Under the pieces are notes generated by a model. The model had not been told where the DNA came from and did no database searches. It saw only the letters and a list, made by a program, of their open reading frames with translations. From a virus: 40,361 bases of DNA. Both the position numbers and the translations under genes were made by a program. The stretch is from IMG/VR virus record IMGVR_UViG_3300045988_155968, positions 1 to 40,361 of that record; one strand, given 5' to 3'. Below are positions 1 to 38,829 of the stretch, in pieces; position 1 is the stretch's first letter; each line of letters opens with the position of its first letter.

Positions 1-419
1 CCGTGTACCAGGACCTGAGGGCGGAGCTCGGCGAGGTGGCGGTGCCGCTGAACACGGGCGTGGAGGCGAGGAACCGGAAGAAGTACGTGCGCCTCAGGGA
101 CGAGATGTGGGGAATGGAGAAGGACTGGTTCGACGCCGGCGGCACGCTTAACGGCGTGGGCCGCTACGAGGACTGGACGACCGACCTCACGAACATCGAG
201 TACTTCTACGACCAGAAGGGCCGCTACATGATAGAGTCGAAGCGCCACTACATCGGGCGAGGGTTCCCCTCGACCGACTGGGCGGACGCGCTCGGTCACT
301 CGCTCCTCGTGAGGCCCGTGAAGGACGCCTCGGACTTCTCGCTCGCGAGCAAGGAAAGCCCGGTACTATTAAGGCGAGACGGATACGGGGACTACCCGTG
401 CGACTGGATGGGAATATGA
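1..419 (+). CDS. terL: Terminase large subunit, C-terminal part. Same gene as 39312..40361, wrapping across the circular junction.
   Basis: The reading frame is continuous with the ORF that runs off the window end, and bases 1..119 are identical to 40243..40361. The protein ends DWMGI at 419, and the portal ATG overlaps its stop (ATGA). Confidence 0.8.
   Translation, partial: VYQDLRAELGEVAVPLNTGVEARNRKKYVRLRDEMWGMEKDWFDAGGTLNGVGRYEDWTTDLTNIEYFYDQKGRYMIESKRHYIGRGFPSTDWADALGHSLLVRPVKDASDFSLASKESPVLLRRDGYGDYPCDWMGI
363..373 (+). promoter_or_regulatory. Conserved 11-mer GTACTATTAAG, copy 1 of 4, lying 42 nt upstream of the portal ATG inside the terL 3' end.
   Basis: The exact 11-mer is also present at 2592, 5639 and 13994, always on the + strand at late-gene boundaries. 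Confidence 0.5.
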
Positions 420-2587
420 CACCACAGAGCGAATTTCAGACGACAGAACCGACTCCATTCGACTTCAACCCGAACACTATCGCGCCCTCTCTTTCGAGGG
501 TGAAGATCGACGACTTCACCGACCCAGACATGTCGTGGGTCATGAACGGCGAGAAGTACTTCATGACACCCGACAGGGCCACCGGCCTCAACCCAATGCA
601 GGAGAGGAAGCTCCGCGAGAAGGCGGAGGCCGACTTCTCCGCCGCGGACTCGTACTGGGGTGGCCACTACAGGGAAATGCGCACCGACTGGGAGTTCTAC
701 GGCGGCAAGGACCAGTGGACCATGGACGCGAAGCTCGCGAGACAGGGGCGCCCCGTGCTCACGATACCGGTCATACCGAAGTTCGTGAAGAGGATCGTCG
801 CGGAGACGAAGAAGAACCCGCCGGCCGTGAAGCTCAACCCCCGCGAGGATTCCGACGTGAACAAGGCGGAAATCGGGATGGGGCTGGTGCGCTACATCGA
901 GGACGTGTCCGGCGCGAAGTACGCCTACTCGCACGGGCTCGAATGCGCGGCGGTAGGCGGGCTCGGATGGATACGCGGCAGGATGGACCTGAAACGGCGC
1001 ACGCTGCGGGTCGAGAAGGTGAAGGACCCGTTCAGGTACTACATGGACCCCGACGCGGAGCGCGAGGACGGCTCCGACGCTAACTATTTCATTTCCAGGT
1101 ACAAGAAGACGCGCAACCGCGAGGTCACGTGGTGCTACGAGTACTGGTGGAAGGAGTACATGCCGGAGGAGAAAGCGGACGGCGTGTTCTGGGCCCTCGT
1201 GGAGGGCGACAGGGTTATCGACTACGGGCGTTTCCCGGGCGAGATAATCCCGATATTCCCCGTAATCGGCGAGGACGTGAACTACGACGGCGAGAGGGTG
1301 CTCAAGGGCATCGTGCGCGACATGGTGGACGCGCAGAGGAGCTACAACTACCTCAAGAGCCAGGAGGTGGAGACGATAGCGCTCTCCCCGAAGGCTCCGA
1401 TAATGGCCGAGGAAGGAACCATCCCGAAGGAATACGAGCGCGACTGGAACAACTGCACGAAGAACCCGACGAAGGTGCTCAAGTACCGCATGACGAACAC
1501 GGACGGCGAGCCCGCGAAGTCTCCCCCCCAGTTCCTCACGGGCATGAAGGTCGATACGCAGTGGATACGCGAGGCGGCGGTAGGCGCCATCAACGACCTC
1601 AAGGAAGTGACGGGCATCTACGACACGGCCCTCGGTTCCGATTCGAGGGAACTCTCGGGCAAGGCCATCATAGCGAAGCAGATTACGGCGGACGCGGGAC
1701 AGTTCACGTACACGGAACACTTGCAGATGACAATCCAGCAGATAGGCCGCTGGATGATGCAGGTCATACCGTACGTGTACAAGGGCGAACGCGCGATAAG
1801 GATTTTGGGCGAGGACGGGAAGCTGAGGAGCGTCGATCTCGACAGGCCGATGGGGGAGAACACGCCGGAAGAGGATCAGGTGCCGATGGACCTTGACTTC
1901 ACGGAGATGGACATTTCCGTCGCGAGCGGCAACTCGTACGCCACGAGGCGCGAGGCGGGCGTCGATGCGTTCCAGAGCATCATGCAGGCGATACCGGAAA
2001 CGGCGTCCGTGATAGCGGACCTCGCCGTGAAGAACATGGACATACCGTGGGCGAGCGAGGCGGCGGAACGCCTGCACGCGATACTCCCGCCGGAAGTGAA
2101 GGCCGCGGAGAAGGCCCCGAAGGGATTCGTCCCGGCGTCACAGCTACAGCAGGCGATGGAAATGTTCGAGCAGGCGAAGGCGGCGAACACGCAGATACAG
2201 GAACAGATGCAGGCACGCATCGTCGCGCTGGAGGGCGAGCTCAAGAACCAGATACAGGGACGTATCGCGGCGGAGCGCATCAAGGGCGAGTACGGTCTCG
2301 CGGAGGTGCAGATCAAGGAGATGAACGCGAACCAGCGCGAGGCTATGAAGGTGCAGGCGGACGTGGAGAAGAGCTCCGCGAAGATACAGACCGACCTCAT
2401 ACGCGAGGTGGGCGAGAGGGCGAGGGATGCGGCGAAAGCTTCCTCCGAAATAGCGAGGGAGCAGAAGTACGGCAATGGAGTTCAGCGCGGTCCAGTCAAT
2501 GAGTCCCACGTGAAGCTGGAGATGGACAACCCCACGCTTTTGGACGACCGTATGACGAACGAGGAAATGCTGATGAACCTGAAATAG
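416..2587 (+). CDS. Portal protein, about 724 aa, P22 gp1-like in size, with a long C-terminal coiled-coil (barrel-like) region.
   Basis: It lies immediately downstream of terL with an ATGA overlap. The size (about 724-729 aa depending on GTG 398 or ATG 416 start) and an E/Q/K-rich C-terminal helical tail are typical of P22-like portals. Synteny terS-terL-portal-scaffold-coat supports the call. Confidence 0.7.
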   Translation: MTPQSEFQTTEPTPFDFNPNTIAPSLSRVKIDDFTDPDMSWVMNGEKYFMTPDRATGLNPMQERKLREKAEADFSAADSYWGGHYREMRTDWEFYGGKDQWTMDAKLARQGRPVLTIPVIPKFVKRIVAETKKNPPAVKLNPREDSDVNKAEIGMGLVRYIEDVSGAKYAYSHGLECAAVGGLGWIRGRMDLKRRTLRVEKVKDPFRYYMDPDAEREDGSDANYFISRYKKTRNREVTWCYEYWWKEYMPEEKADGVFWALVEGDRVIDYGRFPGEIIPIFPVIGEDVNYDGERVLKGIVRDMVDAQRSYNYLKSQEVETIALSPKAPIMAEEGTIPKEYERDWNNCTKNPTKVLKYRMTNTDGEPAKSPPQFLTGMKVDTQWIREAAVGAINDLKEVTGIYDTALGSDSRELSGKAIIAKQITADAGQFTYTEHLQMTIQQIGRWMMQVIPYVYKGERAIRILGEDGKLRSVDLDRPMGENTPEEDQVPMDLDFTEMDISVASGNSYATRREAGVDAFQSIMQAIPETASVIADLAVKNMDIPWASEAAERLHAILPPEVKAAEKAPKGFVPASQLQQAMEMFEQAKAANTQIQEQMQARIVALEGELKNQIQGRIAAERIKGEYGLAEVQIKEMNANQREAMKVQADVEKSSAKIQTDLIREVGERARDAAKASSEIAREQKYGNGVQRGPVNESHVKLEMDNPTLLDDRMTNEEMLMNLK

Positions 2588-2591
2588 GCCC

Positions 2592-2602
2592 GTACTATTA
2601 AG
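2592..2602 (+). promoter_or_regulatory. GTACTATTAAG copy 2, lying 4 nt after the portal stop.
   Basis: Exact repeat of the 11-mer. Confidence 0.5.
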
Positions 2603-2745
2603 GACTGAAGAAATTTTGGGAGTCCGCACCGCACGGACTTTAAGCCTATGCGGGATATTACGCAGCGGGTTCACGGAACCGTTACCCAAGACGGGGAAAT
2701 GTTCAGCGGCGGTTGACATACGGACAACGGCGCGTCCGGCTTCCC

Positions 2746-2778
2746 ATAAGGAACGCGAAGGCACCGGATAAGGAACGC
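2746..2778 (+). repeat. Direct repeat ATAAGGAACGC x2, 11 bp separated by 11 bp, in the 5' leader of the scaffold gene.
   Basis: Copies seen at 2746..2756 and 2768..2778. The second copy supplies the AAGGAA Shine-Dalgarno for the ATG at 2784. Confidence 0.5.
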
Positions 2779-2783
2779 AATCC

Positions 2784-3695
2784 ATGGCGCAATCAATGGA
2801 AGAAGAGATCGACGGACTGGACCTGGAGAAGAACTTCACCGGAGAAACCGAAGAGGTGAAGGAAAAAACTCCGAAGGAACCCGAGCACAAGGAACCCGAA
2901 CCGGACGCAGGCAAGCCGGAGGAGCCGAAAGGCGCCGAGGACAAGGCCGATGGCGAACCGGAGCGGAAGGAACCCGAGCAGAAGGACAGGGACCCGTTCG
3001 GCGTGAAGGGGCATACCCCGAAGGGCGTACAGGAACGCATCAACGCGCTTTCCCGCAGCAACAGGGAGCAGAAGGAGCAGATAGCCCGCCTCACGGCGCA
3101 GCTCGAAAGTTTCCGGAAGGACCTGCCGAAGCCTGCGGAGAAGACGAGGGACGATTTCGGGACCGACGAGGAATGGATAGACTACCGTGCCGAGAAGAAG
3201 GCTCGCGAACTGGTCGAGTCCATTAGGTCGAAGGAACGCGAGGAGGCCGAGATGGCCGAGGCGAAGGAATCGTTCTCGAAGTCCGAGGAGGACGCGCGGA
3301 CGAAGCTCATTGACTACGACGACGTGATGTCGTCGGAAGTGAACCTGCCCGTTGACCGGGACACGTACATGTACGTGCAGAAGTCACCGCTAGGTGCGAC
3401 AGTGCTCTACACGCTGAAAAAGATCGAGGCGGTAAGGAACCAGTTCCTCATGACGCCAGACGCCGGCAAGATTGCCTTCGTCAAGAGCATCGAGGAACGC
3501 ATACGCCAGATACGGGAAGGACAGCCCGCAAGCAATGAACAACCGCCGCAGGCAGTACCGCCGCAGGCGCCACCGAAGGCGGAGGAGCCTCCGAAACCGG
3601 CCCTCAGGCAGCCTCAGGACGTGCGACACCCGGTAAGCCGAGGCCTGGACCCCGCCACCTGCTCGATGGACGAGTGGATGGAGAACGGGGACTAG
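2784..3695 (+). CDS. Scaffolding protein, 303 aa, highly charged E/K-rich with a Pro-rich tail.
   Basis: It sits between portal and coat. The composition is typical of scaffolds and the length equals P22 gp8 (303 aa). Confidence 0.55.
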   Translation: MAQSMEEEIDGLDLEKNFTGETEEVKEKTPKEPEHKEPEPDAGKPEEPKGAEDKADGEPERKEPEQKDRDPFGVKGHTPKGVQERINALSRSNREQKEQIARLTAQLESFRKDLPKPAEKTRDDFGTDEEWIDYRAEKKARELVESIRSKEREEAEMAEAKESFSKSEEDARTKLIDYDDVMSSEVNLPVDRDTYMYVQKSPLGATVLYTLKKIEAVRNQFLMTPDAGKIAFVKSIEERIRQIREGQPASNEQPPQAVPPQAPPKAEEPPKPALRQPQDVRHPVSRGLDPATCSMDEWMENGD

Positions 3696-3719
3696 CAACA
3701 AGTTTAAAGGAAAATCAAC

Positions 3720-5006
3720 ATGTCAACCGTAACAACTACCAACAGCCCGGCGTACATCTCGGGCTACGTCGTGAAGGAAGCCACCAAGGCCTTCATGAAC
3801 GCACGACTTTTCTCCGGCTTCGTAAGAAGCGAATACCGCAACGACTTCGAGGAACGCGGCGCCAAGAAGGGCGACACCATCTTCGTCCGCCGTCCGGCCC
3901 AGTTCCGCGTCCGTACCGGCGCAGGCATGGAAATCCAGGACGTCCATGAAGACAAGGTCCCGGTCACGCTCCCCGAACAGAAGGGCGTGGACTTCCAGTT
4001 CTCCGCAAGGGAACTGACCATCGACATCGACAAGGGCGGCAACGAGTACTCGAAGCGCTGGATCCGTCCGGCAGGCTCCGCACTCGCCACCGACTTCGAC
4101 TCCGAAGGTCTCGACAAGGCGTCCCGTACCGCGGGTTCCGCCGTCATCGTCGGCTACTCGTCCACGAACGACCAGATCTACGAAGCCTTCCTCAAGGCCA
4201 AGGGCATCCTCAACAAGTTCCTCGCGCCGAAGAACCCGACGGAACGCATGGCGTTCGTCGGCTCCGACATTGAGAACAAGCTAACGCAGAACGTGAAGCA
4301 GCTCTACAACAACGCGCAGGCCATCACCAAGGCCATCAAGGACGGCACCATCCAGGACGTCGCGGGCCTCACGTGGGGTTCTACCGACCTCGCCTATGTG
4401 CACGTGAACGGCGGCGGCGGAACGACCTTCACCCCGGGCACCATCACGCCCGACTACGAGAACCTGACCCAGTGGATCCCGTACACCGGCGCGAGCGGAC
4501 TCGCCGTCGGCGACACCGTCGAGTTCTCGGACTCCTACTTCGTGAACCCGGAAAAGAAGAAGGTGTACACCGACAAGCTCCAGCGCAAGGTGTTGGGCCT
4601 CAAGACTGAAAGCGGCACCAAGTACGCCCTCGTCTATTCCATCCGTCCGGTCATCGCCGAAGGTAACGTCACCGACCCGGAAAGCCGCAAGAAGTACGCC
4701 ATGGCGAACTGCTCGGCTCTCCCGAGCGCGGCGGCCTCTGTGCTCGGCGTGGCAGGCGAAAGCTACATCTGCTGCCCGGTTCTCCACAAGGACGCCATGG
4801 TCCTCACCAACGTTGACCTCGCCCGCCCGAAGAAGGTGGAAATGTGCAACTCGGTGAACTACAAGAACGTGGTCATCCGCTTCATCGAGGACTACTCCGT
4901 CACGACGGACCAGTTCCCGGACCGTCTCGACATGCTCGGCGTGTTCACGTCCCTCCTCCCGGAATGGATCGTGGACGTCGAGATCCAGGTCACGTCCTCG
5001 ACATAG
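3720..5006 (+). CDS. Major capsid (coat) protein, P22 gp5-like, 428 aa.
   Basis: There is a strong RBS (AAAGGAAAA), codon bias suggesting high expression, the size matches P22 coat (430 aa), and the gene follows the scaffold. Confidence 0.65.
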   Translation: MSTVTTTNSPAYISGYVVKEATKAFMNARLFSGFVRSEYRNDFEERGAKKGDTIFVRRPAQFRVRTGAGMEIQDVHEDKVPVTLPEQKGVDFQFSARELTIDIDKGGNEYSKRWIRPAGSALATDFDSEGLDKASRTAGSAVIVGYSSTNDQIYEAFLKAKGILNKFLAPKNPTERMAFVGSDIENKLTQNVKQLYNNAQAITKAIKDGTIQDVAGLTWGSTDLAYVHVNGGGGTTFTPGTITPDYENLTQWIPYTGASGLAVGDTVEFSDSYFVNPEKKKVYTDKLQRKVLGLKTESGTKYALVYSIRPVIAEGNVTDPESRKKYAMANCSALPSAAASVLGVAGESYICCPVLHKDAMVLTNVDLARPKKVEMCNSVNYKNVVIRFIEDYSVTTDQFPDRLDMLGVFTSLLPEWIVDVEIQVTSST

Positions 5007-5550
5007 ACGTGTTGACCTTCCGGCCCCCGGTTCCCTGTAGTCCGAGAACCTGGAGGCCGCGATAGTCAACGTCCTTTACGGTTTCTCCGTTGAGATGGTG
5101 GAAGTTTCGCACTTCCGCCATTTTCTTTTCTGTCGCCTTGACGCGGCTGTACAGCATCGACATGGCCTTCAGGCGTACGAACCTGACGTAGTTCGGCCAC
5201 GGTCCCTTTTCCGGGTCCCATTTTTCGAGCAGGTGGACCATGCAGATGTAGAAGTCGTTGGTGTAGTCCTCCATCGACACGCCGTCTATGGAAATCCTAG
5301 GGCTCCCCTTCCATATCGATATTGATATGGAACAGAGCGTGAGCACGTCCCTCTGTTCCTCGGGCGTCATCGGCACCTTGAACAGCGCTATCCTGTGGAT
5401 TATCTTCTTGACCTTTTCCGGGAGCGTCCGCCCCAGTTCGTAGAGCGTATCCCTGCTTATGCAGACTTCGCTCTTGGTGGCTATGTCCCAGTAGTAGTAG
5501 GCAGTACCGTCGTACTTCCTCTTGATGCGTCCTCTCCGTATGGACTTCAT
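4990..5550 (-). CDS. Hypothetical protein on the opposite strand inside the late operon (moron-like), with possible HTH-like segments.
   Basis: A 186-aa ORF sits in a lower-GC island between the coat gene and the next virion gene. It has its own sigma70-like promoter (TTGACT, about 18-bp spacer, TATATT) and a palindromic operator upstream. Confidence 0.4.
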   Translation of the reverse strand: MKSIRRGRIKRKYDGTAYYYWDIATKSEVCISRDTLYELGRTLPEKVKKIIHRIALFKVPMTPEEQRDVLTLCSISISIWKGSPRISIDGVSMEDYTNDFYICMVHLLEKWDPEKGPWPNYVRFVRLKAMSMLYSRVKATEKKMAEVRNFHHLNGETVKDVDYRGLQVLGLQGTGGRKVNTSMSRT

Positions 5551-5562
5551 GCCGGAATCTCT

Positions 5563-5581
5563 TGTTTACATGTTGTAAACA
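5563..5581. promoter_or_regulatory. Perfect 8-3-8 palindrome TGTTTACA tgt TGTAAACA in the leader of the minus-strand gene 4990..5550.
   Basis: Inverted repeat read directly from the sequence. The same TGTTTAC half-site recurs in the CI/Cro switch region (33265..33332) and at 38733. Confidence 0.45.
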
Positions 5582-5638
5582 GCCGAACTACATCTTGTCA
5601 ACAATATAAACAATTTTTCGACAACAAGTCAACATGAC

Positions 5639-5649
5639 GTACTATTAAG
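5639..5649 (+). promoter_or_regulatory. GTACTATTAAG copy 3, lying 14 nt upstream of the ATG at 5664 with a GGAGG RBS between them.
   Basis: Exact repeat of the 11-mer. Confidence 0.5.
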
Positions 5650-5663
5650 ACGGAGGATTTTAT

Positions 5664-6593
5664 ATGCCGAACACCGCAAGGGACATAATCAGGGACGCGT
5701 TCATACGATCTACGCTCAGGGGCCTCGGCGACACGCCGGACGACCTTGAGACGAAGGACGCCCTCGCCATGCTGAACGAGATACTTGACACGCTCAGCCA
5801 GAAGGAGGAGTTCTCGACAGGGAACGCCTCGGTAATAATCGACATGCCGCCGGGACGCCGGTTCGTTACGCTTTCCGACAACCCGCACAGGGTATTCACG
5901 GCCGTGGCCGGTATTGACGGGATACGCTGCATCTGCGGGGATTCCCATGAACTGAACGTGAACGACGGGATAGACGTGAGGATAGGGGCCGAGTCATACA
6001 CGACAACCGTTTCTTCACTGGTATCCCATGTGGAATTTGTGCTTCCGCCGAACGCGAACCTTAGCGGTTCCTATGTAGGCACGTTCAAGCTGCATTCCGA
6101 GCCGGAAGATTTCTTCATCGACATCGTGACGGCTCCTCCCGTGAACATGTTCCAGGTGGTAGGTTCGGGAGTCGGGCAGTTGCAGGAATGCCAGCAGCAG
6201 GATTTCTATTCGGCGGAGCGCGTAGGCAGGTGGTGGTGGTACGACAAGGGCAACACCCCGTACCCGAGGCTGTGGGTAAGCGGATGCGACCGCGTGATGG
6301 CCGTATTCCCTAAGCCTACGTTCAAGAACGTCACGCTCGACACGGACTTCACCTCCATGGACTCTTCCGCGAGGAGCGCTATAAAGTACCGTCTCGCGGC
6401 TGAAATAGCGTCCACGGCGGGATTCACGGCGGTAGAGCAGTCGCTCATGGCGAAGTACAGGCACTCTTTCGCCACGTTCGTAAGAAGCCGATCCCAGAGC
6501 GCGTCACCGATACCGGACTACTCGGCACCTGGATACAGGGACAGCCTCTACTACGACATATTCACCGACGGGGGCGGACATGCCACTTTCTAG
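5664..6593 (+). CDS. Virion structural protein (hypothetical), 309 aa.
   Basis: Called on ORF, RBS and position in the head/tail-completion block after the coat gene. Confidence 0.45.
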   Translation: MPNTARDIIRDAFIRSTLRGLGDTPDDLETKDALAMLNEILDTLSQKEEFSTGNASVIIDMPPGRRFVTLSDNPHRVFTAVAGIDGIRCICGDSHELNVNDGIDVRIGAESYTTTVSSLVSHVEFVLPPNANLSGSYVGTFKLHSEPEDFFIDIVTAPPVNMFQVVGSGVGQLQECQQQDFYSAERVGRWWWYDKGNTPYPRLWVSGCDRVMAVFPKPTFKNVTLDTDFTSMDSSARSAIKYRLAAEIASTAGFTAVEQSLMAKYRHSFATFVRSRSQSASPIPDYSAPGYRDSLYYDIFTDGGGHATF

Positions 6594-8157
6594 TTTCGAC
6601 GCGCTCGTAGGACCGGCCTACAGCTACCCCAGCAAGCCTGTCGATTGCCAGGAGTGCGTCAACTTCGAGTGCCTGAACGTCGGTAGCTCGGCATCGCCGT
6701 ACAGGCACATGATCGTTTCCACTCCTGGAACGAAAAGGATCAGGTTCCGCGTCCACGGGACATCGGAGGTGCTAGACGCCCTCCCTACCGTAAACGCTTC
6801 GCAGAGCCGCATAAGGGGTATCCACAGGTGCTCGGTGCCGTTCAGCGGTGACACTTTCGACGGGGTTGTCGTTGTCGGTTCCGACGCGGTATGGAAGCTC
6901 GGCATGCCGGACGCGGGTTTCGTATGCGAGATAACCAGGCTCGGTATAATTTCGGAAGGTTCCTCCCCAGTTTCGATAATCGACGCAGGCGGCGAGAGCG
7001 GAAGCGCCGTACCGCAGAAGGTCCTTATAGCGGACGGTACGACTGCGTATTACGTTGACATGGACACCATGGCGTTCGGCTCGCTCGGAAACACCATGCC
7101 CCAGCGTCCTTCCGTACTCGCCTACCTCGACGCGAGGGTCTATATGTGCGGCACGGTGAAGAACGACGGGTCTCCTTCGCAGCGGGTTTACTGGTCGGCC
7201 ATCAACAGGCCCGACTCGTGGCAGGAACTGGACTTCGTGAGCGCTTCCATGTTGAGCGACCCGGTGAAGGCCGTAGCCGTTACCGGCAACTACATGTGGA
7301 TGATAGGCTCCGAGACTTTCGAGCTGTGGCAGACGACTTCATCGACTGGCACGCTCTACTCACCCATACGCAAGGTGAACGGCGTGGCTTCGGGCGTAGG
7401 CACGTGCAGCAAGGATTCCGTAGCTACTATAGCTTCCAGCGTGTTCTTCGTCGGAGGAGGCGAGACGGGACGCCTGCACGTTTACGAGGGCGGTTCCAAC
7501 GGTTCCATATCCGTAATCAGCACGGACGCGATGAGCATGGAATTTGCGAGGTACGGGACGCTAGACGACGCTGTAGGCATGTGCTGGAGCGACGATGGGC
7601 AGCTATACTACTCGGTGACTTTCCCTACGCAGGACGTGACGTGGGTGTACAACGTAAACCAGAAGTACTGGCACAAGAGGTCTTCGAGGAAGAACACCGT
7701 GGACCACAGGTGGAACATAACCTGCATCGCGGGAGCCTACAGCATGGTCCTCGGGGCGAACGGCCTTACCGGGGAGCTCTACCACGTGAGTTCGCACTAC
7801 AACGACGACGACGGTGAGCCGATAGTGAGGCGCAGGGTGGCCCCGCACCTCAAGGCGAACGGCAGGCTCCTCATGCACAGGAGCCTCGAACTTGAACTCG
7901 AATGCGGCAACGCCCTTCCGTACGGGCAGGGCAGCGACCCTCAGATAATGCTCTGTGCTCTCGACGGTGCCGGAAGGATCCGCAGGGAGCCAAGATGGAA
8001 GTCAAGCGGTACGCAGGGAATGTACAGGCGCCGCGTGAAGTGGTACAGGCTCGGCACGGCGGTTGACCGCTGCTACGAGATTTGCGTGTCGGACCCGGTA
8101 AGGTGGGTCATATACGGCGCCGTAATAGAGACCGAGGAAGGACAGGGAGGCAAGTGA
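6580..8157 (+). CDS. Virion structural protein (hypothetical), 525 aa.
   Basis: ORF overlapping the neighbouring gene starts and stops, in the late block. Confidence 0.45.
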   Translation: MPLSSFDALVGPAYSYPSKPVDCQECVNFECLNVGSSASPYRHMIVSTPGTKRIRFRVHGTSEVLDALPTVNASQSRIRGIHRCSVPFSGDTFDGVVVVGSDAVWKLGMPDAGFVCEITRLGIISEGSSPVSIIDAGGESGSAVPQKVLIADGTTAYYVDMDTMAFGSLGNTMPQRPSVLAYLDARVYMCGTVKNDGSPSQRVYWSAINRPDSWQELDFVSASMLSDPVKAVAVTGNYMWMIGSETFELWQTTSSTGTLYSPIRKVNGVASGVGTCSKDSVATIASSVFFVGGGETGRLHVYEGGSNGSISVISTDAMSMEFARYGTLDDAVGMCWSDDGQLYYSVTFPTQDVTWVYNVNQKYWHKRSSRKNTVDHRWNITCIAGAYSMVLGANGLTGELYHVSSHYNDDDGEPIVRRRVAPHLKANGRLLMHRSLELELECGNALPYGQGSDPQIMLCALDGAGRIRREPRWKSSGTQGMYRRRVKWYRLGTAVDRCYEICVSDPVRWVIYGAVIETEEGQGGK

Positions 8158-8510
8158 TGGCAAGACAGATACTTGCGCAGCTCGAAGGCGTCTTCGTGCA
8201 GAACATGCCGAGGGTGCAGCAGACCATGAGGAACGGCGACGTGAACCCCGACTGGAACCCGTTCATGAACTCTTTCGACTCGTGGATGCAGCAGGCGTGT
8301 ACGCCAGTGGAAATTGCGGACGGACTCTACGCGGCAAGGGTAGGGTGCGTCATTACCGTGACAGGGACCGTGAAGGCGGGAGCGGAGATAGAGACTGTCG
8401 GTCCTGCGGAAACTTTCGTACGTGAAGGTGTCACGTTCCGCAAGGAAGGGCTAATAATTGGAACAGACACGGACACGGCCGTATCCGTGTCGTACATAGC
8501 GAGGAAATAG
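8157..8510 (+). CDS. Hypothetical virion protein, 117 aa, with its start at an ATGA overlap.
   Basis: The ATG at 8157 overlaps the TGA of the preceding gene, and the ORF track extends in frame from 8082. Confidence 0.4.
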   Translation: MARQILAQLEGVFVQNMPRVQQTMRNGDVNPDWNPFMNSFDSWMQQACTPVEIADGLYAARVGCVITVTGTVKAGAEIETVGPAETFVREGVTFRKEGLIIGTDTDTAVSVSYIARK

Positions 8511-8512
8511 AT

Positions 8513-9457
8513 ATGGGCGGACTTATAGCTGGAATAGCAATATCAACGATAGCCTCGGCGATAAGCGGGTCGATGGGCGCCGATGCGCAGAGGGAGGCAT
8601 ACGAGAAGCTTGCGCGGGCTTCCGAGCAGGAACGCGCCGAGTTCAGGAAGGCATACGACCAGGCTTACGGTCCCGGCTCCTACAACGCGCAGATGCAGTC
8701 AATCGGCGCGAAGGCCGGACGCCAGTTCTACGACGCTCTTAACGACAATGCTGCTTGGGACAAGTACATCAACGGAGAAAGGGCCTACGTAGCTCCTCAA
8801 GACTTCACCTTCACGGAGAAGGACTTCACGGACGATCCTAGCTACAAGGTGAGACTCAAGGAAGGTCTTGACGCTCTCGACCAGAGCAACGTAACGAACG
8901 GGCTTAATTTGTCCGGCGCTGCGATAAAGGCGACGAACGACTACGCGCAGGACCAGGCGAGCAAGGAATACGGAGCCGCATACGACCGTGCGTTCCGTAA
9001 GTACACTGACGACCGCAACTTCGACTACAACGCATGGAAGGCGCAGGCGGACCAGTACTACAACAACCTCTTGCAGAAATTGAATGGTCTCGGGCAGGCA
9101 AGCAGCCAGGGCGTACAGGCGAACAGCGCGCAGGCGCAGGCATTGCAGGCACTGGCGAACAACAACGCTTCCTCGATGCAGCAGCAGGCCACGGCTCAGG
9201 GAGCGGCCGGCATGGCGGGTACTTCCGCGACCACGTCCGTACTCGACGCCATAGCGAAGGGACTCACGACCGGAGCCGGTCTATACGCCTCGCAGGCGGG
9301 AGCCACACCGACAGCGGCTACTCCGGCAAGTTCCTCTCCGACTAACACTTACACGCTCTCGGGAGCGATAGACAGCGGCGGACAGGATTTCGCCAAGCTG
9401 TTCCTCAACGGCTGGAACCCGGCTATACCGACAACGCAGAACCTCGTGGGGGCATGA
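8513..9457 (+). CDS. Hypothetical Ala/Gln-rich protein with a hydrophobic N-terminus, a possible internal or ejection protein.
   Basis: It has an RBS (GAGGAAA), an N-terminal transmembrane-like stretch, and a position analogous to the P22 ejection-protein block. Confidence 0.4.
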   Translation: MGGLIAGIAISTIASAISGSMGADAQREAYEKLARASEQERAEFRKAYDQAYGPGSYNAQMQSIGAKAGRQFYDALNDNAAWDKYINGERAYVAPQDFTFTEKDFTDDPSYKVRLKEGLDALDQSNVTNGLNLSGAAIKATNDYAQDQASKEYGAAYDRAFRKYTDDRNFDYNAWKAQADQYYNNLLQKLNGLGQASSQGVQANSAQAQALQALANNNASSMQQQATAQGAAGMAGTSATTSVLDAIAKGLTTGAGLYASQAGATPTAATPASSSPTNTYTLSGAIDSGGQDFAKLFLNGWNPAIPTTQNLVGA

Positions 9458-9458
9458 C

Positions 9459-9917
9459 ATGGACAACATGATTAACTTCAATCAGATGGTCGCGGATGCC
9501 ATGAAACATTCAAGGTATCTGGACACTCCGGGTCATGAGACAATCGACTATTCCGCAATAGCGTCTTTCGAACAGAACAGGCACAATCCCGAAGCGACGA
9601 AGAAGTTTTCAAGTCCGTCACCGCAGTTCAATCTAGGCATGGGCTACCTCGGAGGCAAGGAAGCGACTCCAGAGAGCGATTCCCTCGAATCCGACAGGCG
9701 AAAGGTCGAGGCGGTCGTTCACGGGCAGGCTACCGTTGACGACCTTCTAGCTGCATTGCGCATGATGGCCTCGATGGAGCCGGACGCGCCGTCCAACCCG
9801 GTAATGCAGCTAGACAGGCAGTACAAGGGTTCCGACGCCATGAGGGGCATTCCAGGCACGGTGGCACAGTACCCGACCGCAGGCGGTATGACACGAGAAA
9901 CCGAGTACAGGTTCTAG
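9459..9917 (+). CDS. Hypothetical protein, 152 aa.
   Basis: Tightly packed ORF in the late operon. Confidence 0.4.
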   Translation: MDNMINFNQMVADAMKHSRYLDTPGHETIDYSAIASFEQNRHNPEATKKFSSPSPQFNLGMGYLGGKEATPESDSLESDRRKVEAVVHGQATVDDLLAALRMMASMEPDAPSNPVMQLDRQYKGSDAMRGIPGTVAQYPTAGGMTRETEYRF

Positions 9918-9928
9918 GAGATTTTACT

Positions 9929-11728
9929 ATGGCTGCATTTGACCTCAATTCGCTTTACTTTTTGAAGAACGCGGCTCCGAAGACTACGAGCTTCGAGGAA
10001 GCCGCCGCGCCAATCAAGACTGGATTCGACCTCGGCACCGCGTACAACGAGAACTACAACAGGAACTCGCTCCAGAACCTTATCGCACAGCGCGAGAGCG
10101 AGGGCGTGCCGTTCGACCGTCTCTCCAACGAGGCGGCTAAATGGGACTTGAACGCCGCAGCAAACATCATGCGTCCCGAGGCTCGAAATAGCATAGACTT
10201 TAACTTCAAGCAAAGCGCCGTCGAATTTGACCGATGGCGTAAGGAAATGGCCAGAAGAATTTGCGGGCTCATTTTGCAGAAGTCCGACGAGCTCGGCATG
10301 GCGCCCGACCAGCAGTACGGAGTTCTCGACACGGCGGCTCATTACGTCGTTACCTACGACCCGGAGCTTGCGGAGTTCCTGATGCAGCAGGCGAACACTA
10401 GACGCTACAACGCCGCACGCACGGCACCGAAGATGCAGAACCAGGACGAAAGCAAGCTCTATCCTTCCGAGATTTCCTCAAGGAAGGCCAAGGCTAACGA
10501 TGTCGATTTCGCGGGCGCCAACCGCTTCCTCGGCACGTACCAGAACAACTCCGCCAACGTAGGAGCGATGCTTGCAAACCTGTATTCTACAGGAAAGCTT
10601 CCGTACTTGAAAAAGGCATGGATTGACGGCGTTACGCAGTTCGCCATGAACTCCGACCCTTCGACATTCATGAACAACTCTATATGGGACAACGCGACTG
10701 TATCCAAGGCCATAGAGCTTTTCATGAACGGAGGAATGGCGGAACAACAGGAAGATACGGTTATCGAGCAGGCTCCTGTTTCCACTCAAGTAAGCCCTGC
10801 TAAAGTTCCTTCCGCATCTAAAGTGAATTTGCCCGAAAACGACGATTACACGAGATCCATAAGGTCATACTACATACCAGGTAACGCGGCACGCGGAACG
10901 AGGGAAAACCTCAACGTGTCGAGGATTGACAAAGACTTGAAAAAGTACTACGACAACCTCGAAGCGTTGCAGTACATGGTGGGCGTGCTTTCGCAGGACA
11001 ACCAGCGATTTGCCGGAGTGAAGGGAGATGCCGGTGCCAACAGCGAAAACGGGGTCGTTAAGGTAAACCGCGAAAAGGTTCAGAAGCGCATAGACGAGCT
11101 CAAGGAACTTGAACGCGGCGGGTTTACGCCCGAAACCGCCAATGCTCTCAAACTTTCTGGTAAGACCGGACAGACTCTTTCGGACGAAATCGCAAGATGG
11201 CAGAGAATACCGAAGATAATAGACGCCTACTACCAGAATCCGGGCGCGATACTTCCGCCTCTCGTAAGGACGTTGCTTCCCGAAGAACGTGCTACCGACG
11301 AGGACGTAAAGAGAATCATAAAGTCCGACCTCGGCGATGACGGTTATAACAAGCTGTTCAACGCGATAGCGGCTACGGACAATAATATGCTAGGTTCGCT
11401 ATTGAGCAAGGAAGCCTACGCGAACGCCGTTAGAAAAGTTGCTCCAATAATCATGAACAACATTAACAAGGAGTATAAGGCTCTTGTCAAGGCTAACAAC
11501 GGCGATATAGGAAAGGTTGACAACGCACTTCGCGAAGCGTACAGGTACGACGACGACGTAATCGACTACGTGAAGGGCAACAAGATTCTTTTCACTGTCA
11601 AGAAGTACTACGACAAGGAAGCCGAACGTGTAAAGAACGAGCGCGAAAAGAAGGAAAAGGAAGTTTTCGAGCGAGGAAACACGCCTTCTAAAAAGAAGTA
11701 CACGGAAGCCGACTGGGATAACTTTTAG
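9929..11728 (+). CDS. Large hypothetical virion protein, 599 aa, a possible ejection or internal protein.
   Basis: It has an RBS (AGGAG), and its size and position resemble P22 gp16/gp20-type ejection proteins. Confidence 0.4.
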   Translation: MAAFDLNSLYFLKNAAPKTTSFEEAAAPIKTGFDLGTAYNENYNRNSLQNLIAQRESEGVPFDRLSNEAAKWDLNAAANIMRPEARNSIDFNFKQSAVEFDRWRKEMARRICGLILQKSDELGMAPDQQYGVLDTAAHYVVTYDPELAEFLMQQANTRRYNAARTAPKMQNQDESKLYPSEISSRKAKANDVDFAGANRFLGTYQNNSANVGAMLANLYSTGKLPYLKKAWIDGVTQFAMNSDPSTFMNNSIWDNATVSKAIELFMNGGMAEQQEDTVIEQAPVSTQVSPAKVPSASKVNLPENDDYTRSIRSYYIPGNAARGTRENLNVSRIDKDLKKYYDNLEALQYMVGVLSQDNQRFAGVKGDAGANSENGVVKVNREKVQKRIDELKELERGGFTPETANALKLSGKTGQTLSDEIARWQRIPKIIDAYYQNPGAILPPLVRTLLPEERATDEDVKRIIKSDLGDDGYNKLFNAIAATDNNMLGSLLSKEAYANAVRKVAPIIMNNINKEYKALVKANNGDIGKVDNALREAYRYDDDVIDYVKGNKILFTVKKYYDKEAERVKNEREKKEKEVFERGNTPSKKKYTEADWDNF

Positions 11729-11736
11729 GAGGTTTT

Positions 11737-13986
11737 ATGACTTACAGAATCTCTAGCCCGACCGGAGAAGTCAGGACCGGCCTTACAAAAGAGGACGTAT
11801 CTGATTTCAAGAACGCAAAACTCAAAAAAGGAATTGACCCTAAAGCAGCCGGATACAAGATTGAAGTAGAAGATTTCGAAGAAGAAAGTTCCGCAAATCA
11901 AGAACCGGAATCTTCGAAGACTTCCTACGAAGACCGCAAGAACGCTTTTCGCCGTGTTGACGAGCGCATCCTTTCCGAAGTTTTTCCCAACATAGCGGAA
12001 CAGGTAATGAACGGCAATCAAAAGTTTGACCTCGGCATGATCCGTGCCGGTCTTTCGGACGCATTCTCGCTTCCAGGAAGAGCCGTTTCCGCATACATGA
12101 GCAGCATGCCGAACATGAAGGGAGAACGAGACACTTTCGACCTCGGGAGGCGAACTGGAGAAGGGACGAACATAGCAGGAACTATCGCAAGGGACCCTGT
12201 TACCGGAGCTACTGTTTTAGGCGGTCGGCTTTTAGCAAGGGGAATCCAAGGCGGGGCGCGTCTCGGGAAATTCCTTCTAGGAGGAGGCGGATTCGGTCGA
12301 GGAGTAGGCGGAGCCGTTGCAGGCGCCGCCGAAGGTGTCGGTATTGAAGGAGCTTCATCCGCATTGAACGACCGTGACTTCACAAAGGAAGGCGCCGTTG
12401 TAGGGGCCGTTTCTGGAGGAGCGTTCGAAGGTCTAGGCCAGGCCGCACAGGCCCTATTGCAGAAGTACGGAAAGAACCTTGTCAAGTCTTCCGTACAGGC
12501 TCTCAATCTTGGAAATACTGACCGGGCATTGACCGACGAGGAACTTGTAAGGTTCCTTTCAAACCAGCGTAACGTTGACGCGCTTGAAAAGACCCTTGAC
12601 GCCGCTTCTTCTGGAAGGAACATGACACCGTTCGTGAACGACAGAGGCAAGGCGCTTGAAGGCGTGCTGGAACAGTCGAGAAACGACGCAATCTACACTT
12701 TGGTCGGGGAGCCTTCATTGAACAGGGGCTTCGACAAGGGCGTGGATTTTTCCAACCCGACTTCCGGCGACATGCAGAGAAGGATGAACGCGTTCAACAC
12801 GCCGGCCGAACAGCTTGAAACAATCCAGCCGAAGACCGTGTACAAGGAAGGAGGGAGGAGCACGGAAGAGCTCAACTACCCTCCACCGAGAAAGTTCACG
12901 TCGAGAAAGAAGCCCAACGACAACAAGGATTACAGATACCAGTCCAACGCTGAGTTCAACATCGAGAAGTTCGCGGACAAGTGGGCAAGCGTTTCGGACA
13001 AGATTGACGGAGCCAACGTACGTCCGGGCGACATTTCCGCAGACGAGGCCGCGATGCTCGACCTACTTAAAGAAGAAGCGGAAAAGGACGCAAGGATAGT
13101 GAAGGGATATACGCCGGACAAGGTGATAAGCTCGAACAAGTTCCTTAACGACCGTAACCCGTTCTCTACAGGTTTCGTTGACAAGGACTTTTCCGACTTT
13201 ATCGCAAGCAAGAACAGGGAAGGCCTATCTACGGAGTTCATAAGGGAAGTAAGGTCTATAGCAGGAAAGAACGACATGGAAGGGCGGAAGGTAACTGACG
13301 CCATAATCGAGAATATCGACAACCGTGGTCTCCGTCCTTCGGAAATAGAAAGGGCGTTCGCCTATTCAAAGAACGACCCGATAGCCGTAAGGAAAGGTTA
13401 CAGGAAAGCCATCGACAGGTTCTCGGACACGCTGTCCGACTATGCTGACGGGAAGGTCGGCACGTCGGGAAGAAACGCCAAGGGCGAACGCTATGTCGTA
13501 GGCAAGGACAACATGAAGAAGTACGCCTACACGTACCTTGCAAGGGTGCAGGAAATTCTCGAAAAGAAGGGAGCACTGAAACACGAGGATGTTGTTGACC
13601 TGTACGGACTTGCGACGAACGTAAACGACAACACTGTGCAGGATGCCGTGATCCAGCTCCTGAAGGACCTCAAGGTATCGGAAAGGGCTATTTCTGACTT
13701 CGAGAAGAACGCAGGGTCGTACGCCATGCTGAACAAGGCCCGCACGAGGATGAAGCGCAACGCCAACGAGGACAACCCGTTCAAGGGCACTATGGTGGCT
13801 CCAATTTATCCACAGGAAGGGTTCAATTCGGCCAACGCCATAGGCTACAGGCTACAGAAGGAAAACTTCAATTTGGGCAGAGGCGCGATGACGCCTATGG
13901 ATAACCCCACCAAGTACGGTCAAGGAGCTAGAGCGGTATATAACTTAGGGATGACCCGCTACAGGAATAGGGATTCAAAAGAATAG
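11737..13986 (+). CDS. Large Gly-rich virion protein, 749 aa, a possible injection or ejection protein.
   Basis: It has an RBS (AGGAGG), and a long Gly-rich segment (GGRLLARGIQGGARLGKFLLGGGGFGRGVGG...) is typical of injected or tape-measure-like proteins. Confidence 0.4.
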   Translation: MTYRISSPTGEVRTGLTKEDVSDFKNAKLKKGIDPKAAGYKIEVEDFEEESSANQEPESSKTSYEDRKNAFRRVDERILSEVFPNIAEQVMNGNQKFDLGMIRAGLSDAFSLPGRAVSAYMSSMPNMKGERDTFDLGRRTGEGTNIAGTIARDPVTGATVLGGRLLARGIQGGARLGKFLLGGGGFGRGVGGAVAGAAEGVGIEGASSALNDRDFTKEGAVVGAVSGGAFEGLGQAAQALLQKYGKNLVKSSVQALNLGNTDRALTDEELVRFLSNQRNVDALEKTLDAASSGRNMTPFVNDRGKALEGVLEQSRNDAIYTLVGEPSLNRGFDKGVDFSNPTSGDMQRRMNAFNTPAEQLETIQPKTVYKEGGRSTEELNYPPPRKFTSRKKPNDNKDYRYQSNAEFNIEKFADKWASVSDKIDGANVRPGDISADEAAMLDLLKEEAEKDARIVKGYTPDKVISSNKFLNDRNPFSTGFVDKDFSDFIASKNREGLSTEFIREVRSIAGKNDMEGRKVTDAIIENIDNRGLRPSEIERAFAYSKNDPIAVRKGYRKAIDRFSDTLSDYADGKVGTSGRNAKGERYVVGKDNMKKYAYTYLARVQEILEKKGALKHEDVVDLYGLATNVNDNTVQDAVIQLLKDLKVSERAISDFEKNAGSYAMLNKARTRMKRNANEDNPFKGTMVAPIYPQEGFNSANAIGYRLQKENFNLGRGAMTPMDNPTKYGQGARAVYNLGMTRYRNRDSKE

Positions 13987-13993
13987 ATACCGG

Positions 13994-14004
13994 GTACTAT
14001 TAAG
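13994..14004 (+). promoter_or_regulatory. GTACTATTAAG copy 4, lying 5 nt upstream of the ATG at 14010.
   Basis: Exact repeat of the 11-mer. Confidence 0.5.
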
Positions 14005-22374: not shown

Positions 22375-22448
22375 TAAACGCATGGGTTATCCCGTCGTTT
22401 AGTGTTGCGGGGATGGCCGAGAGGCCATCCCTATTTTTCATCCTCCTT

Positions 22449-22469
22449 ATGTGTGCCTTTCGTGTGCCA
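22449..22469 (+). repeat. 21-bp direct repeat ATGTGTGCCTTTCGTGTGCCA, copy 1, a candidate integrase arm-type site in attP.
   Basis: It is near-identical (20/21) to 22679..22699, and the two copies bracket the tRNA-Met. Confidence 0.5.
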
Positions 22470-22483
22470 CCACGTCCGAAAGC

Positions 22484-22557
22484 GGGGTTTTAGCTCAATC
22501 GGTTAGAGCGTCGGACTCATAACCCGTTGGTTCCCGGTTCAAGTCCGGGAGGCCCCA
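22484..22557 (+). tRNA. tRNA-Met (anticodon CAU), an initiator-like anticodon arm with two mismatches, lying inside the putative attP.
   Basis: Manual cloverleaf: acceptor GGGGTTT/AGGCCCC (two G-U pairs), D-arm GCTC-AATCGGTTA-GAGC, anticodon loop CTCATAA, T-arm CCCGG-TTCAAGT-CCGGG, discriminator A. The anticodon stem has only 3 clean pairs. Confidence 0.65.
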
Positions 22558-22560
22558 TTT

Positions 22561-22594
22561 ATAGCCGCTTCCGCTTCGGATGCGGCTATTTTGC
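22561..22594 (+). terminator. Strong hairpin plus T-run immediately after the tRNA.
   Basis: ATAGCCGCTTCCG-CTT-CGGATGCGGCTAT followed by TTTG. Confidence 0.5.
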
Positions 22595-22678
22595 TACATT
22601 CCGGCTTATTTTTATCTTTTCCACACCGAATTATCTGTTATCATGTATTATTATTTTCTATCTTGAAAAATCAAGTGT

Positions 22679-22699
22679 ATGTGTGCCTTTTGTGTGCCA
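22679..22699 (+). repeat. 21-bp direct repeat, copy 2 (ATGTGTGCCTTTTGTGTGCCA), immediately upstream of the integrase RBS.
   Basis: See copy 1. Confidence 0.5.
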
Positions 22700-26309: not shown

Positions 26310-26732
26310 TCACGCCACATACTTCGCTATGCGGTCGCAAGCCTTGCGGCACAGCGCCACGAGCTTCTTCTTGCCTTCCTTGTAATTGTCCAAGTTTCTG
26401 TCGTACCCACATACGGAATGAATGAAGTCATTGTATATTGCATCGACAAGTGTCTTTATAGAGTTGTTCCTGTGGCAATTAAAACTTTGTTCGTTAATTG
26501 GGCTTCCGCTTCCATACGTTCCTACCATGTAGTCAAATTCGTAGTAGATATATTTTCCGAACCTGCAAAGCTTGATTTCGATGTTATCCCGCGTCAGCTT
26601 GCCTTCGCGAAATTTCAGAACGTTGTCCACGAATACTCCGCAGTCATTCTTCCCGCCTTCGGGTATGTTGCTCAATAGCCATTGTCCGTGACCTTCGAGC
26701 AGGTCGAATAAGTCCATCTGTCCGTTGTCCAT
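26310..26732 (-). CDS. Hypothetical protein, 140 aa.
   Basis: ORF with an RBS (GGAGAGG). Its start overlaps the stop of the pentapeptide-repeat gene (TGATG). Confidence 0.45.
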
Positions 26733-27463
26733 CAGTACCTCTCCGCTTCTTCACGTGTCCTAAAGAAATGGAATCCGCTCGCGCACTCCACGTTGTACAT
26801 GAGGTTGAAATCCTCTATCTCGATGTCTTGACCCAAGCGGTACTTAAAATCGTTGTCATGTTGGCTGTGCAGCACAACCTTTCCGCCCATGTCAGTAATC
26901 TTGGCTCGGTTTGTTCGGCACTTGGAGTTGTTGATGCTGAACACTATCGCCCCTGCCGGAATCGTGGCGGTGATGATTACACCTTCGTTAGTTTTCTTGT
27001 AGCCCGTTATCGGTTCCTTGAGTATCTGTCCGAGCCGAGGCTTTTCTTTTTCGTCAAGATTGGCGCCGTACAAATTGGCGCCGTACAAATTGGCGCCGGA
27101 CAAATCGGCGCTGGACAAATTGGCGCCGGACAAATCGGCGCCGGACAAATTGGCGCCGGACAAATCGGCGCCGGACAAATCGGCGCCGGACAAATCGGCG
27201 CCGGACAAATCGGCGCCGGACAAATCGGCGCTGGACAAATCGGCGCCGTACAAATTGGCGCCGGACAAATCGGCGCCGGACAAATCGGCGCCGGACAAAT
27301 CGGCGCTGGACAAATTGGCGCCGGACAAATCGGCGCCGGACAAATCGGCGCCGGACAAATTGGCGCCGGACAAATCGACGCGCATATTCTTCCATCCTTC
27401 GCAGTCCTCTTTCAGCCAGTGCTGGTGATTCTCGATTACTTTGTTCAATTCTTCCTTTATCAT
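26732..27463 (-). CDS. Pentapeptide-repeat protein (more than 20 tandem A[D/N]LSG units) with a non-repeat C-terminal domain.
   Basis: The protein reads ...[29 protein letters not shown]... The start at MIKEELNKV has an RBS (ACGGAGAA), and the upstream in-frame extension to 27568 lacks an RBS. Confidence 0.75.
27057..27378. repeat. About 22 near-identical 15-bp tandem DNA repeats (GGCGCCGGACAAATC and variants) encoding the pentapeptide repeats.
   Basis: Seen directly in the sequence. Units differ at only 1-2 positions. Confidence 0.9.
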
Positions 27464-27640
27464 TAGTGATTCTCCGTTGTAAAAATTCCGTCTTTTAGCG
27501 CTGGATACGCAACCAGCTCCGCACGGGTCGTGTAATACCAAGAGGGGGTTAATGGTTGTTCCGTGCAAATTGTTCCCTCCGGCGGTGGTGAGGTGATAAG
27601 CGTGTTGTGAATGTGTCGTACCGCCATCGGGATTGTTAGA

Positions 27641-27747: not shown

Positions 27748-28039
<292 letters not shown>

Positions 28040-28056
<17 letters not shown>

Positions 28057-28441: not shown

Positions 28442-28475
28442 ATTACTTTATCCTTTAAGTTGAGGTTAAACTTAG

Positions 28476-28559
28476 CGGAAGATGGTGGACTCGAACCATC
28501 AAGCGGATTAACCGCGTCTCTTTAGCAAAGAGATTCCTTACCAGTTAGGCTAATCTTCC
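28476..28559 (-). tRNA. tRNA-Ser (anticodon GCU), type II with a long variable arm.
   Basis: Manual fold of the minus strand: acceptor GGAAGAT/ATCTTCC, D-loop AACTGGTAA, anticodon stem TCTCT/AGAGA with loop TTGCTAA, variable arm GCGG-TTAAT-CCGC, T-arm GATGG-TTCGAGT-CCACC, discriminator G. Confidence 0.7.
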
Positions 28560-38460: not shown

Positions 38461-38565
38461 ACGCTTTTTCTTTCTCATGATCACGTGAGCATCGAAATAA
38501 ATTCCACACAAAAAGAAAATCCAACTTCGAAGCGTTGCCGATTATCCATATTATGTAAACTACAT

Positions 38566-38598: not shown

Positions 38599-38797
38599 CG
38601 TTTTCCGTCCGGATCAGTGAGCGAACCCCCCCCGGGGTGTATGGGGGTAGCATCCGAAACTGGGGCAGGGGGGCGGGGAAAAGACACTATATGCCCCCCG
38701 CCTTGCGAGTGTCCGATTCTTACGTAAATTTTTTGTTTACATACACCTATGGAGAGCCCTATTTCCATGGGGTGTATCCGTACTTTTAAGCCGTGGA

Positions 38798-38829
38798 GGG
38801 TCCAAGGGGGACCCGTTGAATTTTTTTTT
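38798..38829 (+). terminator. Hairpin GGGTCC-AAGG-GGGACCC plus T9 immediately upstream of the terS RBS, a candidate attenuator needing antitermination.
   Basis: GC stem then GTTGAATTTTTTTTT. The terS ATG lies 15 nt downstream. Confidence 0.5.

Follow-up and report, generated by a model that had tools for sequence, protein, structure and literature searches.

In the textbook model for phages lambda and P22, the late genes are served by a single late promoter together with a Q antiterminator (Q or gp23). Here we consider a stretch of viral DNA in which the late genes appear to be served differently: IMG/VR virus record IMGVR_UViG_3300045988_155968, positions 1 to 40,361, called the window below (the whole stretch of 40,361 nucleotides), along whose late region an 11-base motif, GTACTATTAAG, recurs at the boundaries between groups of virion genes. 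Two other described modes of late control bear on this arrangement. In phage T4, gp55 reads an 8-bp late promoter motif at the -10 position, with no -35 element (PMC7892883; PMC3152322). In the systems governed by P2 Ogr, Mu C, P1 Lpa and staphylococcal RinA/ArpU, there are several late promoters with a poor -35 that depend on the phage factor (PMC3152322).

A sequence-only reading of the window had drawn attention to the 11-mer and had offered several possibilities: late promoters read by an alternative factor, binding sites for a late activator or antiterminator, or RNA processing sites. Our analysis favors the first, on the grounds of conservation, concerted variation between genomes, a layout like that of a -10 element and the presence of a sigma-like open reading frame (ORF); the activator, antiterminator and RNA processing options fit less well. 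We consider it rather probable that the motif forms the -10-type core of five late promoters and is read by a sigma-like protein of 186 amino acids (aa) encoded among the late genes. Taken separately, it seems likely that the motif is a late promoter core, and we lean, with less assurance, towards the 186-aa protein as its reader.

Results

Exact copies of the 11-mer are found at 363, 2592, 5639 and 13994, all four on the + strand, as the sequence-only reading had reported, and its judgement that they are not random is borne out: none of 100 dinucleotide-preserving shuffles of the window contained any match to the motif, giving a chance expectation of 0. Its list was incomplete, however, as a scan that tolerated one mismatch adds a fifth copy, GTACTTTTAAG at 38780 (+), 5' of the small terminase gene. 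An unbiased k-mer count of the window revealed no other dispersed repeats of this kind, the only further repeats being two tandem-repeat blocks within - strand ORFs.

We refer to the five positions as J0 to J4. J0 (38780..38790, +), the variant copy, lies 5' of the small terminase gene terS (ATG at 38844); relatives carry their own motif at this place, and J0 is the putative first late promoter. J1 (363..373, +) is exact and falls within the 3' end of the large terminase ORF (3..419), in frame and among its last 57 nt, so this copy is not intergenic; the portal ATG (416), which overlaps the terminase stop as ATGA, follows after 42 nt. J2 (2592..2602, +), also exact, has the portal stop 4 nt upstream and heads the scaffold and coat unit. 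J3 (5639..5649, +) is an exact copy in a divergent intergenic region, 14 nt from the ATG at 5664 that opens the block of head-completion and ejection genes. J4 (13994..14004, +), the last exact copy, stands 7 nt past the stop of a gene for a 749-aa protein, and the ATG of the tail gene (14010) follows it by 5 nt. From the four exact copies to the next start codon the distances are therefore 42, 181, 14 and 5 nt. Scans with PHROG and Pfam profiles agree with the genes that the sequence-only reading had placed in these blocks: the portal (416-2587), the scaffold (2784-3695), a P22-type coat protein (3720-5006), a head-closure protein (6580-8157), an ejection protein (8513-9457) and tail beta-helix genes from 14010. 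Its placing of the copies at the starts of late blocks stands to that extent, although it had not seen that the first of them lies inside a coding region.

About 20 related contigs (L001 and so on) were gathered from IMG/VR, JGI metagenomes, ENA and Logan by way of the portal, two further late proteins and the 186-aa protein. From 14 of these genomes, in which portals are 76-99% identical and which include a distant one, L054, with a sigma-like protein that is 28% identical, 62 copies of the motif were aligned, with the register set by the terminase reading frame at J1. Every copy is on the late strand and 61 are at J0-J4; the remaining one is a sixth copy in L050, at 592 (late-strand coordinates), in an AT-rich region upstream of J0. 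In a cross-table of the relatives, each genome has 2-6 matches to its own type of motif (2-3 on short or partial contigs) and none has a copy on the opposite strand. The sequence-only reading had looked to the same gene junctions in related phages as a check, with absence of the motif from them as the contrary outcome; in the relatives, all five homologous junctions retain the motif, and on the late strand only.

What differs between these genomes is the sequence of the motif itself. Each lineage has its own 10-13-mer, identical at all junctions of one genome. The window shares GTACTATTAAG with L001, L012 and L044; the corresponding sequence is tGTAyTATTAAG in L002, L007 and L050, GGAAnTATTAAG in L003, L005, L010 and L047, GCATTATTCAGG in L006, L015, L016 and L049, GGTAyTATTCAGGA in L008, GTATTATTCAGC in L048, CTAyTATTAACC in L019, GTACTTATTA in L020 and L045, GTACTAATGA in L046 (in its promoter form, GTACTAATGAG), GTATTrTTAATG in L051 and yTTATCATTG in the distant L054 (promoter form TTATCATTG), and GGAAyTATTAAG is also among the example lineage motifs. 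These types barely cross-match, the sole overlap being between those labelled A and H, which have the core GTAyTATTAAG in common. Thus the conservation at five junctions and the concerted variation can be read directly from the sequences: sites vary together within a genome, and orthologous sites differ between genomes whose portals remain 76-94% identical, which points to a co-evolving reader that is encoded by the phage. Variation that is concerted and specific to a lineage also argues against a host factor and against linker sequences exchanged between phages. The J1 copy persists within the coding sequence of the terminase while the residues it encodes vary (VLLR, VLIR, VLMR or ALFR); because they shift with the motif of each genome, the constraint acts on the nucleotides. 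In L048, two extra small genes are inserted between the J0 copy and the terminase genes (688-1900, late-strand coordinates).

The alignment of the 62 copies has the features that would be expected of a promoter with an element at the -10 position alone. Upstream of the motif the information content is only ~0-0.3 bit per position, with no conserved -35, in agreement with the sequence-only reading, and no second conserved element is found nearby. Within the motif, the consensus base is present in the following numbers of the 62 copies: G1 in 53, A3 in 57, Y4 in 60, T5 in 61, A6 in 52, T7 in 52, T8 in 58, A10 in 57 and G11 in 47. Positions 12-13 are nearly free of T and G/C-rich, like a discriminator, and position 17, 6 bases past the motif, is a purine in 90% of the copies. 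The motif lacks dyad symmetry, and its positions 5-10 resemble a -10 hexamer (TATTAA in the window, TATCAT in L054); if they are taken as such, the start of transcription would fall at position 17. In the window this is A379, A2608, G5655, A14010 and G38796, and A14010 is also the first base of the tail-gene ATG. The 5-nt distance between the fourth exact copy and this ATG is as the sequence-only reading had given it, and the ATG has no Shine-Dalgarno sequence, whereas most other late genes do. Six genomes have 5 nt between motif and ATG at J4, and two others have 3 nt and 7 nt, respectively; L054, where the spacing is 16 nt, has an AGGAG. The layout at J4 would fit a start between the motif and the ATG, and we predict a leaderless or near-leaderless tail mRNA.

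Three other identities for the motif were considered and rejected. It is not a Shine-Dalgarno-like sequence (UAAGG), as the 3' end of 16S rRNA has no complementarity to the variants TTCAGG, TTAACC and TTATTA. Nor is it the -7 element of Bacteroidota (TAnnTTTG), which only the J0 variant resembles; Shine-Dalgarno sequences and early promoters like TTGACA/TATAAT are in use here. Finally, it does not lie within an RNA hairpin, since no consistent pairing is seen.

The candidate reader is the 186-aa ORF at 4990..5550 on the - strand, which adjoins J3 on the opposite strand, with the coat gene on one side and the next block of late genes on the other. All relatives have an ORF of this family in the same place, even the one whose protein is 28% identical. 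The protein diverges faster than the portal (47-84% versus 76-94% identity), belongs to no PHROG family and has no Pfam match above threshold. Among 1.84 billion proteins there are 34 cluster representatives of the family, all of them 78-231 aa long. A conserved block, DY..FYi.MV..L..(F/W)D..KG.W..yvk, resembles sigma regions 2.1-2.2, and matches to Sigma70_r2 that fall short of the threshold are given by 11 of the 16 close members (best E 0.002) and by 6 of 38 in a wider set. The structural comparison, made on a predicted model, gives the stronger evidence. In an AlphaFold2 model of the protein (pLDDT 75.7, with a core above 88), the predicted fold resembles sigma domain 2, with no domain 4. 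When this model was compared with the PDB using Foldseek, 20 of the 22 best matches were sigma factors, although the matches are weak (best E 0.03), and in a viral structure library phage sigma factors were matched, including one annotated as a "sigma factor for late transcription". The sequence-only reading had named this gene product as a candidate regulator, a suggestion that its predicted fold strengthens. The predicted absence of domain 4 would fit promoters that have no -35. A distant family member, P0038 (23% identity), is encoded at L053:1596-2231 in a different gene order, being 5' of genes for terminase and a P22-type portal, with which it shares the strand; L053, a 7-kb contig, showed no obvious repeat of a motif.

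The sigma-like gene appears to have a promoter of its own. A scan identified a sigma-70-type sequence, TTGACT-18-TATATT (10 of 12 matches), at 5603..5632 on the - strand, and inspection by eye of the reverse-complemented J3 flanks suggests that TATATT and TTGnnn are kept in those relatives that were checked. Only a few bases separate the -35 of this promoter from J3, which would place the two promoters back to back. Sites resembling those of sigma-70 are enriched in the early region (29, versus 15.7 +/- 4.2 in shuffles) and not in the late region (9, versus 7.9 expected).

Several features of the late region accompany the motif. J0 is followed within 8 nt by a hairpin, then by a T9 tract, GGAGG (the Shine-Dalgarno sequence of terS) and the ATG; the GC hairpin is at 38798-38814 and the T9 at 38821-38829, and the whole (38798..38829, +) was matched in a scan for terminator-like sequences. 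The hairpin, with an invariant 3' arm, GGGGACCC, and the T-run are kept in all relatives, in some of which an outer stem abuts the T-run in the manner of an intrinsic terminator. The hairpin and U-run may form a stabilizing 5'-terminal stem-loop, or they may be an attenuator or terminator. Upstream of J0 is a 650-nt non-coding stretch (38131-38779, +) that is conserved in L001, L011 and L019; it contains an AT-rich block, sigma-70-like sites on both strands, a strong hairpin with a T-run at 38566-38593 and a conserved G/C-rich block, GGGGGTAGCATCCGAAAC..GGGGCAGGGGGGCGGGGAAAAGACACTATATGCCCCCCGC, and might serve as a pac site or an origin, or encode a small RNA.

Between J2 and the scaffold ATG (2784) there is a leader of ~180 nt (2603..2783, +) that would be a structured RNA. 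In an alignment of 13 genomes, compensatory changes occur in 18 of 30 predicted pairs, and a pseudoknot is likely between ACCGCA (2628-2633) and TGCGGG (2650-2655), which covary. The invariant blocks are ACGCAGCGG, AGCGGCGGT.GACA and a CAT[AG]AGG loop. The leader has no family match in Rfam, and it may be a cis-regulator of scaffold and coat expression. At the other end of this unit, 86 nt past the coat stop, is a terminator-like hairpin with a 14-pair stem and a T-run (5092..5124, +), similar sequence being present in L019; it likely ends the J2 transcription unit. The hairpin is antisense inside the sigma-like coding sequence, at residues ~142-153 (KKMAEVRNFHH), and late transcription and that of the sigma-like gene would thus converge and overlap.

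The window is a temperate P22-like phage. The profile scans also identified RusA, a tyrosine integrase, Sak4, an exonuclease and a primase; for most ORFs of the early region, no function could be recognized. At the right end lie the gene for the small terminase (38844-39308) and the first part of that for the large terminase, which continues at 1-419; since the large terminase gene is split over the ends of the window, this is a complete, circularly permuted phage genome of ~40 kb. It has no close described relatives: among deposited phages, a megablast search with the whole window and a tblastn search with the 186-aa protein both gave no match, the nearest deposited portals are only ~30% identical to that of the window, and a portal search of genome contigs found none. 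The 3' 41-mer of a phage tRNA-Met, in contrast to the portal, is present exactly in 23 genome contigs, of which 22 are Fibrobacter or Fibrobacteraceae, and on the basis of these matches the host is most likely Fibrobacter. Fibrobacter is a major degrader of fibre in the rumen and, to our knowledge, is without cultured phages; a search of the literature on Fibrobacter promoters or Fibrobacter phages yielded nothing usable.

The tRNA-Met gene is complete (22484-22557) and lies just 5' of the integrase gene (within 22448-22699, +), flanked by a 22-bp direct repeat, TATGTGTGCCTTT[C/T]GTGTGCCA, at 22448-22469 and 22678-22699, the second copy of which is the start of the integrase gene. Four Fibrobacter loci (L030, L031, L033 and L035) have only the 3' half of tRNA-Met, fused to unrelated DNA in the manner of an attachment junction. 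A second tRNA gene, for tRNA-Ser (GCT), is in the early region (28475-28559, -). The tandem repeats mentioned above are long, have periods of 15 bp and 6 bp and lie within coding sequence, at 27050-27400 and 27800-28030, in the - strand ORFs 26732-27568 and 27748-28056, the former of which matches several PHROGs that carry no assigned function.

Discussion

In the model that we infer for promoter function, start sites and reader, the host polymerase with its normal sigma factor would transcribe the 186-aa gene from TTGACT-18-TATATT, and the protein would then direct core polymerase to sites of the form G-N-A-Y-T-A-T-T-M-A-G. Positions 1-4 of these sites would serve as a lineage-specific upstream extension, positions 5-10 as the -10 hexamer and positions 11-14 as a G/C-rich discriminator. 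Transcription would begin at the purine ~6 nt past the motif, with +1 at 38796, 379, 2608, 5655 and 14010 for J0 to J4, the last of which would give a leaderless tail mRNA. J0 would drive the terminase genes, J1 the portal gene, J2 the structured leader, scaffold and coat as far as the hairpin and T-run at 5092-5124, J3 the head-completion and ejection genes, and J4 the tail genes.

Several observations weigh against this model. The window protein scores 12.6 bits with Pfam Sigma70_r2, for which the cut-off is 24; an hhalign comparison of the 186-aa family with T4 gp55 is not significant (E 0.03-0.4); and a profile search of PDB sequences with the family retrieved no sigma factor. As these sequence comparisons are not significant, our assignment of the protein as sigma domain 2-type is one of moderate strength. 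Covariation between residues of the protein and bases of the motif is no better than for control groupings: two adjacent columns, S83 and R85 in the window (GGPN versus xxP[KR]), do split C from A at motif position 9, and the controls give 0-4 such columns. L007 and L050 have a motif near that of the window, yet their protein of the 186-aa type is only ~48% identical to the one encoded in the window. In the proposed register, position 10 corresponds to -7 and is an A, where sigma-70 -10 hexamers typically have T. Finally, the hairpin and T-run after J0 could terminate a transcript begun there.

Of the other explanations, the one that survives best retains a promoter and changes the reader. The motif could be a promoter-proximal site for some other DNA-binding protein of the phage, a late activator or specificity subunit acting together with a host sigma factor, with the 186-aa ORF playing no part in its recognition. 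The concerted variation demands just some phage-encoded reader, there is ample room for one among the early ORFs to which we could assign no recognizable function, and the sigma assignment of the 186-aa ORF is below threshold by sequence. We nonetheless regard this as unlikely. The lack of dyad symmetry and of a second conserved element nearby is not what such a site would lead one to expect, and at J4 the motif is 3-7 nt from the ATG, which leaves no space for a core promoter downstream; the motif must itself fill the -10 region there, and is not an upstream activator site. Such an explanation must also ignore the sigma-2-like ORF that adjoins J3 in every genome.

Alternatively, the motif might act in RNA, as a site where a phage-specific endoribonuclease cleaves or an RNA-binding protein binds, dividing the long late transcript into units (portal, scaffold and coat, ejection genes, tail genes) or controlling how these are translated. 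An element that is strand-specific, A/U-rich, variable between lineages and located at cistron boundaries would suit this role; a cut at J4 would yield a near-leaderless mRNA just as a start there would, and the presence of a + strand promoter-like site and a terminator 5' of J0 means that J0 itself might be transcribed. We find this distinctly unlikely, however, because the purine fixed at +6 and the G/C-rich discriminator are features of promoters, J0 precedes the first late gene, and the motif is not part of a conserved RNA structure. Moreover, no nuclease or RNA-binding domain was detected among the ORFs scanned (40 with PHROGs, 20 of them also with Pfam), and the neighboring ORF is sigma-like rather than nuclease-like.

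It is much less probable that the copies are loading or pause sites of a processive antiterminator of the RfaH/ops, lambda nut or Q-site type. Elements of this sort, short, exact, confined to one strand and oriented with transcription along a long operon, are what such a factor would use, and there is a terminator-like hairpin after J0 and a second at 38566-38593; but J1-J4 are not followed by terminators, five sites exceed what a single-promoter system of the Q type needs, and a site in front of the first late gene would not be expected. The spacing at J4 to a start codon without a Shine-Dalgarno sequence would also be left unexplained, and no homologue of NusG/RfaH, Q or N is found among the ORFs scanned. 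That the copies are linkers for module exchange between phages, or sites related to packaging or restriction, would suit their location at functional-module boundaries and is nevertheless extremely improbable, as linkers would need to be shared between phages and the recombination form of the idea is refuted by motifs that are specific to each genome, and as the copies keep strictly to one strand and to a fixed distance from start codons, with one of them inside a coding region.

If late promoters read by the 186-aa protein are indeed what the motif represents, late control of the T4 gp55 kind would extend to small temperate P22-like phages, and a first view would be gained of transcription signals in phages of Fibrobacter. 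More tentatively, the 186-aa proteins might constitute an undescribed minimal sigma family, built from domain 2 alone, without a family in Pfam or PHROGs and with 34 cluster representatives, in P22-like temperate Fibrobacter phages; its members might recognize at least ten seemingly non-interchangeable types of 11-mer, each at five late promoters, one of which would give a leaderless tail mRNA and another of which would head a new structured leader RNA before the scaffold gene. At least ten natural pairs of factor and promoter would offer a system for studying the evolution of -10 recognition specificity, and could supply orthogonal sigma/promoter pairs. Rumen metatranscriptomes would allow a direct test of the model, given the start sites that it predicts.

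It is instructive to set the locus beside the systems with which it shares some features. Like the lambdoid and P22 phages, the window has P22-like virion genes, with J0 followed by a hairpin and T-run before the terminase genes; it is unlike them in having five sites rather than one and in the recurrence of the motif far downstream within the late block. Antitermination of the Q type is not indicated, as there is no match to a Q family among the ORFs scanned and only J0 has a hairpin and T-run, and neither is that of the RfaH/ops type, there being no match to an NGN or KOW domain among the same ORFs and an element at J4 that abuts the start codon. The activator-dependent systems resemble this one in having several late promoters with a poor -35, but their conserved site is upstream (-22 to -55) and often has dyad symmetry, in contrast to a motif at -10 that has none.

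The promoter sets of T7, T3 and SP6 also show likenesses, in that near-identical copies stand before late blocks, some within the coding regions upstream, and in that promoter specificity shifts between related phages along with the phage's own reader. Their conserved element is ~19-23 bases long, however, whereas that of the window is 11 and is laid out as a bacterial -10 element, and no single-subunit polymerase like that of T7 is found in the window, where the annotated large ORFs are structural (portal, tail beta-helix) and the others have no match.

For T4, counterparts of gp33 and gp45 were sought among the 40 ORFs scanned with PHROGs (20 also with Pfam) and none was found, though many of these ORFs are unannotated and diverged counterparts are possible. 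The 186-aa protein has no significant sequence similarity to gp55, so that homology is not indicated, and the setting is that of a 40-kb temperate P22-like podovirus as opposed to a T4-like myovirus. The motif in the window has 11 bases, with a 5' part that is specific to the lineage, and the gene for its candidate reader is embedded in reverse orientation among the late genes. Even so, it is the T4 late promoter, TATAAATA, read by a gp55 of about the same length as the 186-aa protein, that provides the closest functional likeness to the system described here.

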